Sequence record: KT454805
Strand: one strand, 5' to 3'
Source: Escherichia phage phiSUSP1
Length of the DNA: 64,000 nucleotides
The translations under genes were made by a program, and so were the position numbers. Under the pieces are notes generated by a model. The model made no database searches and was not told the origin of the DNA. It worked only from the letters and a program-made list of their open reading frames with translations. This document shows, piece after piece, positions 57,849 through 63,578 of this stretch (positions are counted from its first letter, which is position 1; each line of letters starts with the position of its first letter).

Positions 57849-57925
57849 CTCCGTTTAGCTCAGTTTGGTAGAGTGCGCCGTTTGGGGCGGTGAGGTCGAA
57901 GGTTCAATCCCTTCAACGGAGACCA
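57849..57925 (+). tRNA. tRNA-Pro (anticodon TGG)
   Basis: acceptor CTCCGTT/AACGGAG, T-arm GGTTCAATCC, loop TTTGGGG; CCA encoded. Confidence 0.75.
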
Positions 57926-57932
57926 AATTAAT

Positions 57933-58010
57933 GTTCCAGTAGACAAATTGGTAAAGTCACCACACTTTCAATGTGGAGTTTTGAGGGTTCAAGTCCCTTC
58001 TGGAACGCCA
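57933..58010 (+). tRNA. tRNA-Glu (anticodon TTC)
   Basis: acceptor GTTCCAG/CTGGAAC, T-arm GAGGGTTCAAGTCCCTT, loop CTTTCAA. Confidence 0.75.
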
Positions 58011-58017
58011 AATTTGA

Positions 58018-58082
58018 CAGAAGACCAAGTACAGCAAATAACTTTACTTTTCGCGCATAGAAAACTTAAAAGTTTGGTCTGG
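58018..58082 (+). ncRNA. inverted-repeat-bounded inter-tRNA element E1
   Basis: CAGAAGACCAA...TTGGTCTGG, 7-bp closing stem AGACCAA/TTGGTCT. Confidence 0.4.
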
Positions 58083-58093
58083 TCATAAAAGTT

Positions 58094-58170
58094 CGCGGGT
58101 ATAGAGAAAGGGCGTCTCACATGTCTCATTAGCATGGTATCGGCAGGTTCGACTCCTGCACCCGCCTCCA
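58094..58170 (+). tRNA. tRNA-Met/Ile2 (anticodon CAT)
   Basis: T-arm GCAGGTTCGACTCCTGC, loop CTCATTA, 3' ACCCGCC-T-CCA; 5' boundary uncertain. Confidence 0.6.
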
Positions 58171-58176
58171 AATTTG

Positions 58177-58239
58177 CAGAAGACCGTTTACAGCAATCTC
58201 AAAAATTTTTATCGGAAAAAATGAAAAGATACGGTCTGG
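58177..58239 (+). ncRNA. inverted-repeat-bounded inter-tRNA element E2
   Basis: CAGAAGACCGT...ACGGTCTGG, 7-bp closing stem. Confidence 0.4.
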
Positions 58240-58252
58240 CAATACTAAACAT

Positions 58253-58329
58253 GGTGAGGAAGCACATAAGGCATGTGCGGTCGGCTGTTAACCGAATGGT
58301 ATAGGGTTCGAATCCCTAACTCACCGCCA
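58253..58329 (+). tRNA. tRNA-Asn (anticodon GTT)
   Basis: D-arm GCAC-ATAAGGCAT-GTGC, loop CTGTTAA, T-arm TAGGGTTCGAATCCCTA, CCA encoded. Confidence 0.75.
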
Positions 58330-58399
58330 AGATTTGGGAGAGAAGCGTAATGCTCACCGATTTGTAAGGTGTAAGTCCTTAGCCTGAATAGAATAAAAT

Positions 58400-58487
58400 G
58401 CGTCGTTATCCCGTAGATGGAAGCGGTGGTGACTGTAAATCACTTGTCATTATGACTCGGTAGGTTCGACTCCTTCACGGCGCACCA
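58400..58487 (+). tRNA. tRNA-Tyr (anticodon GTA), class II
   Basis: 88 nt with long variable arm; loop CTGTAAA; acceptor GCGTCGT/ACGGCGC. Confidence 0.7.
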
Positions 58488-58493
58488 AATAAA

Positions 58494-58571
58494 GGTTATG
58501 TAGTTTAATCTGGTTAAAATACCTCACTGTCACTGAGGAAGATGAGGGTTCAAATCCCTTCGTAACCGCCA
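58494..58571 (+). tRNA. tRNA-Asp (anticodon GTC)
   Basis: anticodon arm CCTCA-CTGTCAC-TGAGG; T-arm GAGGGTTCAAATCCCTT. Confidence 0.75.
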
Positions 58572-58632
58572 ATTTTGAGAGGGCTTTCTAGCCCCTCCCT
58601 TAAAGAGTTCTTACGAGTATTCTTTAAAGGAG

Positions 58633-58709
58633 CAGAAGACCAAATTCAGCAAGCCAACTTAAAAAATTTCAAGCCAATTTAATTTTGAAAAATTTAAAAC
58701 TTGGTCTGG
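58633..58709 (+). ncRNA. inverted-repeat-bounded inter-tRNA element E3
   Basis: CAGAAGACCAA...TTGGTCTGG closing stem. Confidence 0.4.
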
Positions 58710-58722
58710 CTCAACAAATTTA

Positions 58723-58849
58723 CAGAAGACCGTTTACAGCAAGTATAAAACAATCTATTTCTCTGGTAAAGAAAAGGAGAAGGTTCGATTCCTTCACACG
58801 TTACGGCGTGTTGGTGTAATGGTAGCACTTAAGATAAACAACGGTCTGG
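58723..58849 (+). ncRNA. structured element E4 with tRNA-like T-arm (Y-RNA-like candidate)
   Basis: closing stem AGACCGT/ACGGTCT; internal hairpins GAAGG-TTCGATT-CCTTC (T-arm-like), ACACG-TTACGG-CGTGT, GTGT-AATGGTA-GCAC (D-arm-like); no anticodon arm. Confidence 0.4.
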
Positions 58850-58998
58850 TAATCCTCTTTGCAGTGACTTATGGAGCTAAATGTCGTCCCATGAGTGCCG
58901 ATGAATTTCCTTAGCATGATTCTAGATTAGCTTAATAGGAAATGACTCTACAAACCCTTTAGCAAGGTTTGCGTAGGTTACTGCAAAGATGATTTAAT

Positions 58999-59074
58999 GG
59001 GGGTGTAGCAGAAAGGTGATGCGGCAGACTTTTAATCTGACAGGCGACGGGTTCGAATCCCTCCACTCCCACCA
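58999..59074 (+). tRNA. tRNA-Lys (anticodon TTT)
   Basis: acceptor GGGGGTG/CACTCCC, loop CTTTTAA, T-arm GACGGGTTCGAATCCC. Confidence 0.7.
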
Positions 59075-59078
59075 ATAT

Positions 59079-59155
59079 GGTTCAGTCGCAGATAAGGTAA
59101 TGCAAGGGTTTCATAAGCCCTATGAATGTGGGTTCGAATCCCATCTGAACCTCCA
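59079..59155 (+). tRNA. tRNA-Met/Ile2 (anticodon CAT), second copy
   Basis: acceptor GGTTCAG/CTGAACC, loop TTCATAA, T-arm GTGGGTTCGAATCCCAT. Confidence 0.7.
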
Positions 59156-59156
59156 A

Positions 59157-59232
59157 GCTGGTATAGTTAAGAAGGTTATAACACTCCCCTGATAAGGGAA
59201 CATCGGTGGTTCGATTCCACCTACCAGTACCA
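59157..59232 (+). tRNA. tRNA-Ile (anticodon GAT)
   Basis: loop CTGATAA, T-arm GGTGGTTCGATTCCACC, acceptor GCTGGTA/TACCAGT. Confidence 0.7.
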
Positions 59233-59247
59233 ATTTCAATAAAGTTG

Positions 59248-59276
59248 TTGACATGGAGATGTGACTACTTTATAGT
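59248..59276 (+). promoter_or_regulatory. sigma70-like promoter inside tRNA cluster
   Basis: TTGACA-N17-TATAGT. Confidence 0.6.
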
Positions 59277-59509
59277 AGCCTTAGTTTTCGTTAGCGTAGC
59301 GTCTATTTTGCAAACTTAAAAATAAATGCAAACGATAATGCTTTTCTGGCAGTAGCTTAATAGGCTAAACACCAGTGAGGTCTTCCAATTCCTCATCAAA
59401 GAATTTGGCGTACTCGCCCACGGTATGATTAATAAGGTGGGCAACATTCTAAAGGGTATCCCGTATGGGGCTTGGCTTAAATGCAATGAGTACCCTTTAA
59501 AATGTTAAT

Positions 59510-59586
59510 GCACCCTTAGTTCAATTGGATAGAGCAAGTGCCTTCTAAGCACTGAGTTACAGGTTCGAGTCCTGTAGGGTGTGCCA
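59510..59586 (+). tRNA. tRNA-Arg (anticodon TCT)
   Basis: anticodon arm AGTGC-CTTCTAA-GCACT, T-arm ACAGGTTCGAGTCCTGT. Confidence 0.75.
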
Positions 59587-59593
59587 GTTTAAT

Positions 59594-59715
59594 GGTCAAG
59601 ACAACACTAGTAAGCCATCTGGATACATGTTAACAGATGTACGAAAGTCGGAAAGTTGCTGAAGGTTAGCTACCTTCGAGAGTAAGTAGGTTCGACTCCT
59701 ACCTTGACTGCCAAA
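59594..59715 (+). ncRNA. atypical tRNA-like element (possible pseudogene or insertion-containing tRNA)
   Basis: perfect T-arm GTAGG-TTCGACT-CCTAC and 3' CTTGACT-G-CCA pairing with GGTCAAG ~120 nt upstream; no canonical D-arm. Confidence 0.3.
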
Positions 59716-59849
59716 TAGTTAGCAGATTACTTAGACGACCTTAGCGGGTCTCCGTGTTGATTCAGATGAGTCAACTTCATAAGGAGGTGGTCTGTATCTC
59801 ATGTTTTCCAGAACATGTAAATAATCTGAGAAGAGGCTTGACAGTGTTG

Positions 59850-59878
59850 TGACAATACGGTAAGCTTCGAATTATAGT
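59850..59878 (+). promoter_or_regulatory. sigma70-like promoter
   Basis: TGACAA-N17-TATAGT upstream of tRNA-Trp and HNH gene. Confidence 0.5.
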
Positions 59879-59884
59879 GTTAAT

Positions 59885-59955
59885 AGGGGTGAGCTAAGGC
59901 AGCAATAGAGTCTCCAAAATTCTTGATTAGAGTTCGAATCTCTACACCCCTGCCA
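59885..59955 (+). tRNA. tRNA-Trp (anticodon CCA), short D-arm
   Basis: acceptor AGGGGTG/CACCCCT, loop CTCCAAA, T-arm TAGAGTTCGAATCTCTA; 71 nt. Confidence 0.6.
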
Positions 59956-59969
59956 GAATAGGTACTTGT

Positions 59970-60374
59970 ATGAAACTTTGTAGAAAATGCTCACAAGAAA
60001 AACCTTTAAGTTGTTTTCATAAGCGTGGTAATGGATACCAGTCAGTATGCAAAGATTGCAAATCCAAATACTCTTCTAAGAAGTATCAAGAAGACCCAAC
60101 TTATAAAGCTAAAAGGAAAATTAGGGCGGTAGCTGACAGAAAAAGAAACAGAGAGTTTCTTAACCGATACAAAAGAATCTGCAAATGCAGAGTTTGTGGT
60201 GAATCTGAACCAGTAGCATTAGACTTCCACCATTTAGACCCAAATGAAAAAGACTTTGAACCTAGCAATTTAAAGACTTACTCTAGAGGGACTATTAAGA
60301 GAGAAGTTAGAAAATGTGTTGTACTGTGTTCTAACTGTCATAGGAAAGTTCATGCAGGACTGTTAGAGGTTTAA
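59970..60374 (+). CDS. HNH endonuclease inside tRNA cluster
   Basis: Cys pairs CRKC...CKDC...CRVC and DFHHLDPN...LCSNCHRKVH HNH motif. Confidence 0.7.
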   Translation: MKLCRKCSQEKPLSCFHKRGNGYQSVCKDCKSKYSSKKYQEDPTYKAKRKIRAVADRKRNREFLNRYKRICKCRVCGESEPVALDFHHLDPNEKDFEPSNLKTYSRGTIKREVRKCVVLCSNCHRKVHAGLLEV

Positions 60375-60388
60375 CAGTCTTATTAGGG

Positions 60389-60475
60389 GTAGATAGCGGC
60401 TAATGGAAGCCAAATTGTCTTGAAAACAATTGCCATTGTAGTGATACGGTGAGGGTTCGACTCCTTTATCTACCG
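60389..60475 (+). tRNA. tRNA-Ser (anticodon TGA), class II
   Basis: 87 nt with long variable arm; anticodon arm ATTGT-CTTGAAA-ACAAT; CCA not encoded. Confidence 0.65.
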
Positions 60476-60628
60476 CCTAATGAGATTTAAGCCCACGCTC
60501 TGGTACAGCGTTCGGTTTCCCTCGTGTATTGTCGTACACGCACAACAAAGCACCTAGTAGGTGTCACGGAGAAGAGATAATATCAAGCTCTCCAAAGGTT
60601 CTAGTCACCGGATTAAACAAGACTATGC

Positions 60629-60648
60629 AAAGACCAGTTAGGTCTTTT
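60629..60648 (+). terminator. rho-independent terminator
   Basis: AAGACC-AGTTA-GGTCTT followed by TTT; ends a ~150-nt structured non-tRNA segment. Confidence 0.5.
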
Positions 60649-60718
60649 TAGAGAATTGTTAAGGCATTTGATACCATTGTTGCTTTGGCGTCTTAGCAGT
60701 TCTCTACAAAGATTTAAT

Positions 60719-60796
60719 GGGAGATTGACGGTAATTGGTAAACCTACCATCCTTAGAAGTTGGTGTTTGAGGGTTCGAATCCCTTGTCTCCTACCA
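60719..60796 (+). tRNA. tRNA with anticodon read as TAG, class I
   Basis: acceptor GGGAGAT/GTCTCCT-A-CCA, T-arm GAGGGTTCGAATCCCTT; anticodon arm CCATC-CTTAGAA-GTTGG is a 1-nt variant of the Val tRNA arm. Confidence 0.5.
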
Positions 60797-60803
60797 AATT
60801 AAT

Positions 60804-60879
60804 GCAGGTGTAGCAAAATGGTTATGCGGCTGACTCTTAATCAGTAAGACGATGGGTTCAATTCCCTCCACCTGTACCA
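60804..60879 (+). tRNA. tRNA-Lys (anticodon CTT)
   Basis: paralog of tRNA-Lys(TTT); loop CTCTTAA with compensatory stem change. Confidence 0.6.
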
Positions 60880-60885
60880 AATATT

Positions 60886-60961
60886 GGGGTTGTAGTTTAA
60901 ATGGTTAAAACATAAGTTTTGCAAACTTAAGTACAGGGTTCGATTCCCTGCTTCTCCACCA
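60886..60961 (+). tRNA. tRNA-Cys-like (anticodon GCA), imperfect acceptor stem
   Basis: anticodon arm AAGTT-TTGCAAA-AACTT, T-arm CAGGGTTCGATTCCCTG; two U-U mismatches in acceptor; possible pseudogene. Confidence 0.4.
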
Positions 60962-60967
60962 ATTAGT

Positions 60968-61042
60968 GCATCCATAGTTTAAACGGGAAAATTACAGTCT
61001 TCCAAACTGAGGTTGAGGGTTCGATTCCCTCTGGATGCTCCA
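60968..61042 (+). tRNA. tRNA-Gly (anticodon TCC)
   Basis: acceptor GCATCCA/TGGATGC perfect; loop CTTCCAA. Confidence 0.75.
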
Positions 61043-61049
61043 AATTAAT

Positions 61050-61125
61050 GCTCCTATCGTATAATTGGCTATTACGGTTGCCTTGTAAGCAACTTATCAG
61101 GGTTCGAATCCTTGTGGGAGCACCA
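61050..61125 (+). tRNA. tRNA-Thr (anticodon TGT)
   Basis: anticodon arm GTTGC-CTTGTAA-GCAAC; acceptor GCTCCTA/TGGGAGC. Confidence 0.75.
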
Positions 61126-61221
61126 ATTCAGAGGTCGAGTGAAAGACCGCTTGAGTCAACTGAAGACCGTAACAAATTCCACGGAGTTGAGTTAGCGGCA
61201 CAACTTCAGACCTCTTTTCAT

Positions 61222-61296
61222 ACTCGCTTAGTTTATACGGTAAAGCCCCATCCTTACAAGTTGGTGAAGAAGGTTCAAGTCCTTCAGCGAGTACCA
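61222..61296 (+). tRNA. tRNA-Val (anticodon TAC)
   Basis: loop CTTACAA as in E. coli tRNA-Val; acceptor ACTCGCT/AGCGAGT; T-arm GAAGGTTCAAGTCCTTC. Confidence 0.7.
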
Positions 61297-61298
61297 AT

Positions 61299-61376
61299 GT
61301 TCCAGTATCCCAATTGGCAGAGGATGCAAGCTCAAACCTTGTATTAGTGACGGTTCGAATCCGTCTTGGAACACCA
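61299..61376 (+). tRNA. tRNA with anticodon read as CAA, class I
   Basis: acceptor GTTCCAG/TTGGAAC-A-CCA; anticodon arm GCAAG-CTCAAAC-CTTGT; T-arm GACGGTTCGAATCCGTC. Confidence 0.5.
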
Positions 61377-61392
61377 ATTTTAGGAGATTCCT

Positions 61393-61605
61393 ATGAAGCC
61401 TTATGGTAGACACGGTAAAGTTGAAATTGCAAGTTGTGGTTGCTGTGCTTCTCACGATGGTGAAGAAGATTACTACAAGTGGCGTACAGACCATCGTAGA
61501 CGCTTTCTCAGAAGAGATAAGAAGAGAGCTAGACAGGAATCTCAAAAGAACATTGCAGAATTAGTTCAAATGGATAGAGCAGCAGCCTACGAAGTTGCTT
61601 GTTAG
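61393..61605 (+). CDS. small basic Cys-containing protein; 3' end overlaps tRNA-Arg
   Basis: AGGAG RBS 7 nt before ATG; 70 aa; last ~50 nt overlap tRNA 61555-61631. Confidence 0.25.
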   Translation: MKPYGRHGKVEIASCGCCASHDGEEDYYKWRTDHRRRFLRRDKKRARQESQKNIAELVQMDRAAAYEVAC

Positions 61606-61631
61606 GGGTTCGAATCCCTTATTCTGCACCA
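61555..61631 (+). tRNA. tRNA-Arg (anticodon ACG)
   Basis: acceptor GCAGAAT/ATTCTGC perfect; anticodon arm GCAGC-CTACGAA-GTTGC. Confidence 0.7.
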
Positions 61632-61650
61632 ATTTAAAGAGGCTATTTAA

Positions 61651-62208
61651 ATGAGATATTTGAAGTATGCTTCATGGATTTTCCTAGCTTTGCTAGAGCC
61701 ATTTGCAGCAATCTTAGCAGTAATCTTAGCACCCTTTGTGGTTCCATTCTACAGTGAGAGGAAAGGTCACTTACCTTTTGGATTCAGATGGATGGAAACT
61801 TATGATAACCCGATTGACGGTGACAAAGGTCACGTTGAGCGATGGGCTAAGATTCGAAAGATTGGTAAGCTCGGTGTTTATATGCAGAGAGTTGGATGGC
61901 TCTGGAGAAACAAAGCTTATAACTTCTCTTACCATGTATTAGGAAGAGATGTAAAAGATGTTACTAAGTGGAAAGGTAATATCAACGTAAGTTCTAACCC
62001 TGAAGATAAACAGACAGGTTATCTCCTGATGTGGAACAGTAATGCTTGGGGTTTATTCGCTTTTATCCCGTCAATTAAAATCTTTGGTAAACAATTTTAC
62101 TGGAGAATTTATGTTGGTTGGAAACTTAAAAGTGTTGTCCCAGAAGAAAGAGCATTTTCAAGGGAAAGAATTATGTTGGCATTCTTTATTCATCCACTAA
62201 GAAAGTAA
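61651..62208 (+). CDS. hypothetical protein with N-terminal hydrophobic helix
   Basis: AAGAGG RBS; WIFLALLEPFAAILAVILAPFVV; 185 aa inside tRNA cluster. Confidence 0.4.
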   Translation: MRYLKYASWIFLALLEPFAAILAVILAPFVVPFYSERKGHLPFGFRWMETYDNPIDGDKGHVERWAKIRKIGKLGVYMQRVGWLWRNKAYNFSYHVLGRDVKDVTKWKGNINVSSNPEDKQTGYLLMWNSNAWGLFAFIPSIKIFGKQFYWRIYVGWKLKSVVPEERAFSRERIMLAFFIHPLRK

Positions 62209-62216
62209 AGATTTAA

Positions 62217-62292
62217 AGGGGATTAGTTTACAAGGTTAAAACCTCGGTCTTTGAAATCGAAGAAGTTGGTTCAATTCCAACATCCCCCGCCA
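62217..62292 (+). tRNA. tRNA-Gln (anticodon TTG)
   Basis: anticodon arm TCGGT-CTTTGAA-ATCGA; T-arm GTTGGTTCAATTCCAAC; A1-C72 mismatch. Confidence 0.65.
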
Positions 62293-62294
62293 AT

Positions 62295-62373
62295 GCTCCA
62301 TTACTCCAATTGGCAGAGAGGCCAGACTTAAAATCTGTGTTATGTATCGGTTCGAATCCGATATGGAGTACCA
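62295..62373 (+). tRNA. tRNA with anticodon read as TAA
   Basis: acceptor GCTCCAT/ATGGAGT-A-CCA; loop CTTAAAA in a Lys-tRNA-like arm; 7-nt variable loop. Confidence 0.5.
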
Positions 62374-62380
62374 AATTAAT

Positions 62381-62456
62381 AGCAGTGTAGCATAACTGGC
62401 AATGCTCCAGCCTCTGAAGCTGAAAGATTAAGGTTCAAATCCTTACGCTGCTGCCA
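62381..62456 (+). tRNA. tRNA-Gln (anticodon CTG)
   Basis: anticodon arm CAGC-CTCTGAA-GCTG; T-arm TAAGGTTCAAATCCTTA. Confidence 0.65.
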
Positions 62457-62487
62457 CTTCTAAGGGTTCTTACGAGAGTCCTTACAT

Positions 62488-62564
62488 GTGTCCTTATCAT
62501 AAATGGATAATGACCCATGCTGTGAACATGGTCTATACGGGTTCGATTCCCGTAGGTCACCCCA
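62488..62564 (+). tRNA. tRNA-His (anticodon GTG)
   Basis: D-arm TCAT-AAATGGATA-ATGA, anticodon arm CCATG-CTGTGAA-CATGG, discriminator C73. Confidence 0.7.
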
Positions 62565-62572
62565 AATTTAAT

Positions 62573-62648
62573 GGGTTAAGTAGCTTATATGGTTAAAGCG
62601 CGTGTCTGAAAAACATGAGAAGAGGGTTCAAATCCCACTAACCCGCCA
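62573..62648 (+). tRNA. tRNA-Phe (anticodon GAA)
   Basis: anticodon arm CGTGT-CTGAAAA-ACATG; acceptor GGGTTAA/CTAACCC. Confidence 0.6.
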
Positions 62649-62665
62649 ATTTCAAAAGGTGCTTA

Positions 62666-63400
62666 ATGAAAGAGATGACAGAACAAGGTAAAGAGATTTT
62701 TAATCTCCTGAAATCCGGTAACGGGTTTTCTAACCCTCTTATTACTGGTGCAGCAATCCTTGGTGGCACAATTGCCGCTTCTACTTCATTAGTAAGCTCT
62801 ATTAGCTCGGTATCAGACCCTACAGTAAAAGATAAACTTATTGCTGCTGGTTTGACTACAGCCTTGTTAAGTAGCTTCTCAACGAGCCTTGGAAGCACTA
62901 CAACGACAACTAACACTTTGACTCAATACGGGCAGAAGTCTGTAGATGAGTTCTCATCACGTATGCAGGTAGCTAAAGGTTACTCTAACGTTATGGGTGC
63001 AGCAGGAGAACAAGTTGGTTGTACACCGTTTAGTGGAATCATGGGAGTAGCTACAGAGTACGGTCAAAAAGCTATGGATTTGATTAACACCTCCATAGAC
63101 ACTGTGAATGGCGTTCTAAGTGATTTGCAAGATGCAATCAACAAAGGACTAGATACTATATCTCCCTTAGCCTCACAAGCCGTTACAGCGATTAATCAGG
63201 GCATTGCTAAGATTACTGCATATGCTAATGAGGTCACTCAGATGATTGCAGATGAAGCAGCGTTAATTGCTGATTACTTGAAAACGAATATCAATGGTTT
63301 CCTTGCAGGTATCTTACCAGACTGGTTTGATGATGCTTGTAAAACTGGCGTGATTGATTCAATCGCAACTCCAGAGATGAAGGATGCCTTGAATAAATAA
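62666..63400 (+). CDS. hypothetical Ser/Thr/Ala-rich protein
   Basis: 244-aa ORF between tRNA-Phe and tRNA-Ser. Confidence 0.4.
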   Translation: MKEMTEQGKEIFNLLKSGNGFSNPLITGAAILGGTIAASTSLVSSISSVSDPTVKDKLIAAGLTTALLSSFSTSLGSTTTTTNTLTQYGQKSVDEFSSRMQVAKGYSNVMGAAGEQVGCTPFSGIMGVATEYGQKAMDLINTSIDTVNGVLSDLQDAINKGLDTISPLASQAVTAINQGIAKITAYANEVTQMIADEAALIADYLKTNINGFLAGILPDWFDDACKTGVIDSIATPEMKDALNK

Positions 63401-63402
63401 TT

Positions 63403-63495
63403 GGAAGATTAACCCTAAAAGGTAAGGGAACAGTTTGCTAAACTGTCAGTAACCGAGAAATCGGCGTACCAGTTCAAGTCTGGTATCTTCCTCCA
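63403..63495 (+). tRNA. tRNA-Ser (anticodon GCT), class II
   Basis: 93 nt; acceptor GGAAGAT/ATCTTCC perfect; anticodon arm ACAGT-TTGCTAA-ACTGT; long variable arm. Confidence 0.75.
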
Positions 63496-63503
63496 ATTTA
63501 ATG

Positions 63504-63578
63504 CGTCGATGACAGAAATGGCTATGTGCCTGTCTGCAAAACAGGATTATGAGGGTTCGACTCCCTTTCGACGCTCCA
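63504..63578 (+). tRNA. tRNA-Cys (anticodon GCA)
   Basis: acceptor GCGTCGA/TCGACGC perfect; anticodon arm CCTGT-CTGCAAA-ACAGG. Confidence 0.75.

Follow-up and report, generated by a model that had tools for sequence, protein, structure and literature searches.

What sort of gene, if any, is a stretch of phage DNA that sits within a tRNA array and is tRNA-like without being recognizable as a tRNA? The stretch in question is found in Escherichia phage phiSUSP1 (sequence record KT454805), of which 64,000 nucleotides, here called the window, were analyzed. Positions 57849-63578 of the window are a dense array of 25 tRNAs as called by ARAGORN, 23 of which are recovered as well by Rfam at gathering score. 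By megablast this is an array of the Ounavirinae, that is, of FelixO1 relatives, with the best matches found in the Suspvirus phages SUSP2, CHB7, mistaenkt, and EcSzw (94-97% identity). The original prediction for this locus offered three options, i.e., a tRNA interrupted by an insertion, a degenerated pseudogene, or a tRNA-like ncRNA, of which the last provides the best fit. The element is a real, conserved, and unannotated tRNA-like RNA gene, one of the same kind as species 1 of phage T4.

The element is 120 nt in length (59594-59713 of the window) and is made up of a 7-bp acceptor stem, a G73, an encoded CCA, a canonical T-arm, and two conserved extra hairpins, H1 and H2, which replace the normal D-arm and anticodon arm. 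All of the parts that had been predicted, namely the acceptor strands, T-arm, both hairpins, and G-CCA, are found where they had been placed. The span that had been given, 59594-59715, is right in its start and in its length of about 120 nt, though the RNA's 3' end is at 59713. The features are as follows:

59594-59600, + strand: acceptor 5' strand GGUCAAG, which pairs with 59703-59709 (G1.U72, G2:C71, U3:A70)
59601-59615, + strand: single strand J1, ACAACAC(U/G)AGUAAG, nearly invariant
59616-59639, + strand: hairpin H1, with CAUCUG (59616-59621) pairing with CAGAUG (59634-59639) around a 12-nt loop
59640-59655, + strand: single strand J2, UACGAAAGUCGGAAAG, invariant apart from one A to U change
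59656-59685, + strand: hairpin H2, with its core, GAAGGU-UAGCU-ACCUUC, at 59661-59677
59656-59660 and 59681-59685, + strand: H2 extension UUGCU/AGUAA, a possible 5 bp which would abut the T-arm
59686-59702, + strand: T-arm GUAGG-UUCGACU-CCUAC, canonical
59703-59713, + strand: acceptor 3' strand CUUGACU (59703-59709), discriminator G (59710), and CCA (59711-59713)

Closer inspection modifies several aspects of this anatomy as first described. The acceptor stem, which had been called perfect, does consist of seven pairs, and these are paired in 100% of cells among the 11 variants considered below, but its pair 1:72 is a G.U. The discriminator is instead an A in phage CHB7. The stem-loop GAAGG-TTAGCTA-CCTTC is present, but its loop, rather than being 7 nt, probably is the 5-nt UAGCU, given that the pair which closes that shorter loop covaries. 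A D-arm had been said to be lacking, which is only partly right. That is, the AGUCGGAAAG of J2 (59646-59655) resembles a D-loop (A14..G18 G19 A20 A21, as read against the tRNA consensus) and may interact with the T-loop. In addition, a candidate 4-bp D-stem, formed by CAAC (59602-59605) with GUUG (59655-59658), would enclose an insertion of approximately 40 nt, of which H1 is the core. This putative D-stem displays no covariation and one of its edge pairs is broken in two variants.

Is such an arrangement more than an accident of sequence? The element's fold energy (z = -1.7) is unremarkable by itself, and a four-helix, tRNA-like fold with acceptor stem and T-arm imposed lies only 1.2 kcal/mol above the minimum free energy. 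No ORF of at least 30 aa spans the element in the element's own orientation. A scan for T-arms, i.e., for a 5-bp stem around TTYRANN, was run on both strands over the entire 64-kb window, and the matches consist of the array tRNAs, the element, and only about 10 other places. As none of these stray matches is followed by an acceptor strand and CCA, the element is more than what chance supplies. The T-arm nonetheless is uninformative as to the element's origin, since the same sequence is common to tRNAs of many isotypes, and searching IMG/VR with a T-arm pattern was too generic, returning ordinary tRNAs of many isotypes.

Many of the parts of a tRNA are present in the element, including its 7-bp acceptor stem, discriminator, and CCA, along with a T-stem of 5 bp that closes a TPsiCRA loop. 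ARAGORN nevertheless makes no tRNA call on it, and the Rfam tRNA model (RF00005) does not match it, either at gathering score or at E<=10. An intron-aware or otherwise relaxed tRNA finder had been suggested as a check, and when run as ARAGORN's relaxed and intron modes on the intact element it returned only inconsistent, partial calls. Deletion in silico of about 37-45 nt (from element nt ~9-13 to ~46-55), however, gives rise to what ARAGORN calls a full-length tRNA-Ala(AGC). Because deletion of these approximately 40 nt yields a tRNA call, the element can be described as a tRNA skeleton with an insertion in its D-loop region. An interrupted tRNA consequently stands as a description of the element's origin and anatomy, but not as an intron-containing gene nor as an alanine tRNA: The insertion is not an intron, and nothing suggests its removal. 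A search for the element's parent among the array tRNAs did not find one, with scores at background level.

It might be supposed from that ARAGORN call that the element is a working tRNA with an expanded D-loop, decoding GCU (anticodon AGC) or some other codon, particularly as U33 and the AGC triplet are invariant and as J2 carries the D-loop-like GG-A motif. We consider this to be very improbable. The anticodon arm has the U33 just noted, but position 37 is U, i.e., a pyrimidine rather than a purine; loop positions 32 and 38 covary as a Watson-Crick pair, U:A with G:C; and in KPS64 the would-be anticodon stem has lost a pair and so is one pair shorter. For these three reasons the element is not a decoding tRNA. 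The alanine identity pair G3:U70 is absent as well, while the array's real alanine tRNA, tRNA-Ala(UGC), possesses it. The tmRNA-family Rfam models do not match 59594-59713 at E<=10, the ARAGORN tmRNA search of the window was negative, and no tag sequence is found within the element. Lacking both G3:U70 and any tmRNA model match, the element thus is neither an alanine acceptor nor a tmRNA tRNA-like domain.

How widespread is the element, and does its structure persist? By blastn it is present in only 23 phage records, all of them Suspvirus or Mooglevirus (87-99% identity), and in none of the 23 has it been annotated as an RNA gene. One metagenome contig (L195) was added by scanning IMG/VR, JGI metagenomes, and GTDB genomes for conserved patterns, and no copies were found in E. 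coli genomes or among PLSDB plasmids. The ACGAAAGTCGGAAAG pattern also recovered known phages from IMG/VR. Its matches in IMG/VR contigs of 120-150 kb have no T-arm or tRNA nearby and so were set aside as chance, probably coding sequence. Other than L195, gapped-pattern matches in metagenomes and GTDB genomes were chance or ordinary tRNAs, and model R1, as applied to 100 IMG/VR tRNA loci, T4, Tian, and others, matched ordinary tRNAs only.

These records supply 11 distinct variants from two genera, which were scored against a structure that we ourselves specified. Of the cells that ought to be paired, 97.4% are, versus 33-48% when partners are slid, and the element's covariation score was reached by none of 500 shuffles. 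Changes on both sides are seen at three pairs: an H1 pair that alternates between C:G and U:A (five variants), the H2 closing pair that alternates between U:A and G:C (four variants, with the UAGCU loop invariant), and an H2 A:U that is G:C in KPS64. In addition, an H1 U:A becomes U.G in two variants, the outer mismatch of H1 becomes U:A in six of the 11 (five Moogle-type plus Sf19), and several further pairs change to wobbles on one side. Apart from edge pairs, no disruptive changes are found within the helices. The tRNA-like portions vary hardly at all, the acceptor stem, T-arm, and CCA being intact in each of the 11. Thus, the acceptor stem varies once (3:70 being U:A in nine variants and U.G in two), the T-stem is invariant, and the T-loop changes a single time (G to A in Moogle), so that covariation in the acceptor stem, T-arm, or putative D-stem is not seen among these variants. 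Variable positions instead are those of loops and bulges; J1 and J2 are nearly invariant, including J2 in its RNA form, ACGAAAGUCGGAAAG.

RNAalifold adds to this structure a plausible 5-bp extension of H2, with a G.U that becomes A:U in two variants, which would place H2 flush against the T-arm, along with three weak inner pairs within H1. It also proposes pairing between J2 and the T-loop which we reject, as this pairing is broken by the Moogle G to A change and would destroy the T-arm. Dimerization by kissing of the palindromic H1 loop (ACAUGU/ACGCGU) was similarly set aside, a change of tetraloop upon the three weak inner pairs being simpler.

Against such conservation stands the suggestion that the element is a decaying tRNA pseudogene, or indeed a duplicated tRNA 3' end with inserted junk, which is carried along and perhaps cut by RNase P but otherwise functionless. 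This we hold to be rather unlikely, though it does have points in its favor. Identity of the element to its relatives (0.87-0.97) is no higher than that of the flanking spacers; the array holds other decayed tRNA pieces as well as imperfect tRNAs; and the element is limited to two closely related genera. Furthermore, the Felixounavirus VpaE1 is without the element, with alignment indicating a clean indel, both flanks conserved, the ends of which fall in the TGCCA 3' termini of tRNA-Arg and of the element, i.e., a simple indel between two repeats. Given its absence there, the element is dispensable in the Felixounavirus background. Since identity does not exceed that of the spacers, the case for selection rests on a few compensatory events, and these represent few independent events as the variants form only two or three clades. 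Decay nevertheless should not produce compensatory changes at three pairs of H1 and H2 along with one-sided wobbles, leaving only edge pairs unpaired, nor should it leave the supposedly inserted single strands as the most invariant parts while keeping acceptor stem, T-arm, and CCA whole throughout. The truly decayed tRNA fragments of this same array also look different. A degenerated pseudogene thereby is the disfavored option.

The surroundings of the element resemble those of the array tRNAs. Immediately upstream are the following:

59248-59276, + strand: sigma-70-like promoter, near-consensus (TTGACA-17-TATAGT), as found by consensus scan only
~59283-59509, behind that promoter: an unannotated tmRNA-tag-like RNA, with its tag at 59328-59360
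59510-59586, + strand: tRNA-Arg(UCU), the upstream neighbor, which shares with the element its 3' end, UGCCA
59587-59593, + strand: leader GTTTAAT, the 7 nt that separate the element from the tRNA-Arg(UCU) CCA

An (A/T)TTAAT leader precedes the element and about 11 of the array tRNAs, with TTTAAT presumed to be an RNase P cleavage context. Like almost all of those same-leader tRNAs, the element ends with an encoded CCA that is followed by an A, and overall its leader-plus-CCA 'grammar' matches that of the array's 25 bona fide tRNAs. Since no terminator-like site is found between the promoter and the element, that promoter probably drives tag-like RNA, tRNA-Arg, and element together.

Sharing this processing grammar with tRNAs, the element could be viewed instead as a cis-acting processing module, one that recruits RNase P and 3' exonucleases much as occurs with tRNA punctuation, and which thereby would set the 3' end of tRNA-Arg as well as the 5' end of the segment that follows (59714-59884). 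The downstream block is, consistently, highly conserved, but this is so also in phages lacking the element: Felixounavirus retains both that block and tRNA-Arg with no element in between. A plain minihelix, moreover, would be sufficient for such a role, yet H1, H2, J1, and J2 all are conserved. Both the module itself and the two ends that it would set strike us as quite improbable.

A number of other observations concern the array itself. The block at 59714-59884 is largely invariant among the window, Michonne, and VpaE1, with 0.74-0.85 identity to other relatives, and contains a hairpin (59738-59752), a strong Shine-Dalgarno sequence (AAGGAGG, 59781-59787), a 7-codon ORF (MFSRTCK*, 59801-59824) overlapping a hairpin, CATGTT..AACATG, and a promoter-like site (59838-59878) ahead of tRNA-Trp. 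That tRNA-Trp(CCA), at 59885-59955, has an aberrant D-arm, i.e., a 12-nt D region without a stem. It is missed by ARAGORN and is absent from the whole-window Rfam run at gathering score, while scoring 32.6 bits in a permissive, E-value-based Rfam search of the region. CHB7, Michonne, and VpaE1 have in the same slot a different, unannotated Trp-like gene, one with what looks to be an anticodon loop of 9 nt (L001 2603-2680). A gene resembling tRNA-Tyr(GTA), at 58403-58487, has a T-stem that is mismatched and goes without an ARAGORN call in the window; its annotation is tRNA-Tyr in CHB7 and pseudo-tRNA in PC79-13. At 58779-58840, within the 427 nt that separate tRNA-Asp from tRNA-Lys, there is an orphan T-arm (GAAGG-TTCGATT-CCTTC) that lacks a CCA and is followed by an apparent tRNA 5' half, GGCGTGTTGGTGTAATGGTAGCAC; these probably are decayed tRNA fragments. 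Lastly, the 134-aa ORF at 59970-60374, also inside the array, displays HNH-endonuclease motifs, and in Sf19 it has been annotated as an endonuclease. The endonuclease ORFs of relatives differ from it and are found at this position as well as elsewhere in the array, which accounts for much of the array's length variation between relatives.

The tag-like RNA raises a question of its own, that of whether it and the element work together. Its resume region and tag read AUAAAU GCA AAC GAU AAU GCU UUU CUG GCA GUA GCU UAA, i.e., ANDNAFLAVA. It is not in Rfam and is not called by ARAGORN; Rfam tmRNA models match it below threshold only; it resembles E. coli ssrA only in the tag and over a short PK4-like stretch; and no tRNA-like domain was found in it. 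Homologues are present in 679 phage records from several families (Ounavirinae, Ackermannviridae, 46-kb siphoviruses, Schitoviridae, and the lambdoid HK633) and, unannotated, in 348 of 5426 E. coli genomes, there on chromosomes (prophages) and on plasmids of about 110 kb. The RNA often adjoins tRNA-Arg(UCU). Variation in its tag is coding-like (ANEEMYLAVA, ANDNTFLAVA, ANDDVVLMAA, ANDNVFLAVA, ANDAQFLAVA), with synonymous changes and, with ANDNVFLAVA, a change of stop from TAA to TGA. The stop codon lies inside a covarying helix, a pseudoknot-like hairpin comes next, and helices both around and after the stop covary. Neither this RNA nor the element was found to be described in the literature that was searched, i.e., on phage tmRNA-like RNA, tRNA-like decoys, and a function of T4 RNAC.

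With a tmRNA-tag-like RNA that lacks a tRNA-like domain (TLD) encoded in the element's own transcription unit, just 85 nt upstream, it is tempting to see the element as supplying the tRNA-like half of a trans-translation system that has been split into two RNAs. Kolesnikvirus and phage IME11 likewise have a non-canonical element with acceptor stem, T-arm, and CCA near their tag-like RNAs, and mycobacteriophage DS6A provides an example of a tmRNA that is CDS-less, consisting of a TLD only (PMC11915505). The temptation is one we resist, such a pairing being highly improbable here. As noted, the element has no G3:U70 and matches no tmRNA model. Its complementarity to the tag-like RNA is at best 9-10 bp, several of these being G.U, and shuffled controls do as well (this by a stem search with shuffles, which replaced an RNAduplex comparison that gave meaningless long duplexes). 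The two RNAs also differ greatly in distribution, 679 phage records versus 23, with Felixounavirus possessing the tag-like RNA without the element, and neither HK633 nor PM10 having a non-canonical tRNA-like element within 1.5 kb of theirs (HK633 has nothing tRNA-like near it at all, and PM10 has an ordinary tRNA-Met about 1.3 kb downstream). A functional link between element and tag-like RNA, in short, is not supported. Highly improbable, too, is that element, tag-like RNA, and tRNA-Arg(UCU) together form a phage module that rewires the rescue of stalled ribosomes. Were they to do so, the module could add a phage tag ending in LAVA in place of the host degradation tag, and the tRNA-like elements of Kolesnikvirus and IME11 would be alternative partners of the tag-like RNA. 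This adjoining RNA probably is a more important lead than is the element.

What then is the element? We consider it fairly probable, based on its sequence and on that of its relatives, that it is a functional, tRNA-derived, non-decoding RNA which is matured as a tRNA is matured. Transcription would take place within a polycistronic precursor of the tRNA array, most directly from the promoter at 59248-59276, with tRNA-Arg(UCU) and the tag-like RNA forming part of the same transcript. Cleavage by RNase P after the UUUAAU leader would then produce G1, 3' trimming would proceed to the encoded CCA, and the T-loop would serve the T54 and Psi55 enzymes as a normal substrate. The predicted folded RNA keeps the 'top half' of a tRNA, i.e., the acceptor/T-arm minihelix, probably with an elbow formed through the invariant GG of J2, and its lower half, so predicted, is replaced by the two covariation-supported hairpins along with the two invariant single strands. 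Such a molecule might conceivably serve as a tRNA mimic that is bound by some tRNA-binding factor of host or phage, rather than serving as a reader of codons.

Taken alone the element is a modest finding, a new example of an old puzzle, that of T4 'species 1'. Stable, tRNA-like RNAs of phage tRNA clusters, i.e., T4 species 1 and 2, have been known since the 1970s, and to our knowledge a function for these two RNAs has never been found. The element and its Kolesnikvirus counterpart show that the slot following tRNA-Arg(UCU) is filled repeatedly by such RNAs in unrelated groups of myoviruses, and they provide independent, small, genetically tractable examples of tRNA-like phage RNAs. As these phages infect E. 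coli K-12, and as natural relatives without the element exist, the old question is open to experiment. There is a lesson for annotation as well, this being a gene missed by tRNA and RNA finders alike and unannotated in 23 of 23 genomes.

Comparison with known systems places the element more precisely. Like a canonical tRNA it has an acceptor stem, discriminator, CCA, T-arm, leader context, and D-loop-like motif, but unlike one it has a D-loop insertion of about 40 nt that bears a hairpin, a covarying pair that closes the 'anticodon' loop, and a U at position 37. With the tRNA-like domain of tmRNA it shares acceptor stem, T-arm, CCA, the lack of a functional anticodon arm, and a helix that lies against the T-arm, while differing from it in having no G3:U70, no tmRNA model match, no tag, and no demonstrable pairing to the tag-like RNA.

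Closer at hand is an unannotated 168-nt element of Kolesnikvirus (Erwinia phage Tian, L214 957-1124), found in 36 records (Tian plus 35 others). This belongs to the same phage subfamily and occupies the same site, beginning 5 nt after tRNA-Arg(UCU), and it too has a 7-bp acceptor stem with one G.U (GGGUGAU/AUCACUC), a G73, an encoded CCA, a T-arm, and an adjoining tag-like RNA, which there follows the element together with a promoter. Unlike in phiSUSP1, a long helix continues its acceptor stem directly and its T-stem is 4 bp; model R1 does not match it. IME11 has a 67-nt, unannotated tRNA-like element without a D-arm (L131 1901-1967), the acceptor of which is UCCGGUG/CGCCGGA with A73 and CCA, and which has a GCA triplet in a 7-nt loop. 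It is located about 180 nt downstream of the IME11 tag-like RNA, within a 2-kb stretch that has no annotated gene.

In T4 itself, what comes after tRNA-Arg(UCU) is rnaD (species 2, 119 nt) and then rnaC (species 1, 139 nt). These RNAs, RNAC and RNAD, are expressed and stable but of unknown role (PMC3014915, PMC9697503), and reviews and recent omics papers still list them as such (PMC3014915, PMC9697503, PMC12685909). The element resembles rnaD in lying directly 3' of tRNA-Arg(UCU) and in its length class; rnaD, however, unlike the element, has no recognizable T-arm and folds poorly, and similarity between the two was not found. For rnaC, which is without an Rfam family, comparison over four Tevenvirinae genera gives a family fold with 13 covarying pairs, in which an acceptor-like stem and a canonical T-arm are accompanied by two hairpins, the first long and the second, of 10 bp, lying against the T-arm. 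Homology to the element is not detected: blastn with rnaC returned 748 records which, among the matches listed, all are Straboviridae/T4-like, with no Ounavirinae; model R1 has no significant match to T4 rnaC and only weak ones, of ~12-13 bits and in the range of ordinary tRNAs, to the rnaC of two relatives; and MAFFT alignment of element with rnaC finds identity in the T-loop only. The rnaC of T4 differs too in its irregular acceptor stem, its lack of an encoded CCA, its longer hairpins, and the presence of rnaD between it and tRNA-Arg. What is shared is the position, within a tRNA cluster and downstream of tRNA-Arg(UCU), and the architecture, i.e., an acceptor-like stem, a T-arm, a hairpin in the place of the D-arm, and a second hairpin that abuts the T-arm. 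By analogy of architecture and position only, the element would seem to be the same kind of molecule as T4 rnaC, and the slot after tRNA-Arg(UCU) is one which, in at least three phage groups, holds tRNA-like RNA genes among which no homology is detected.
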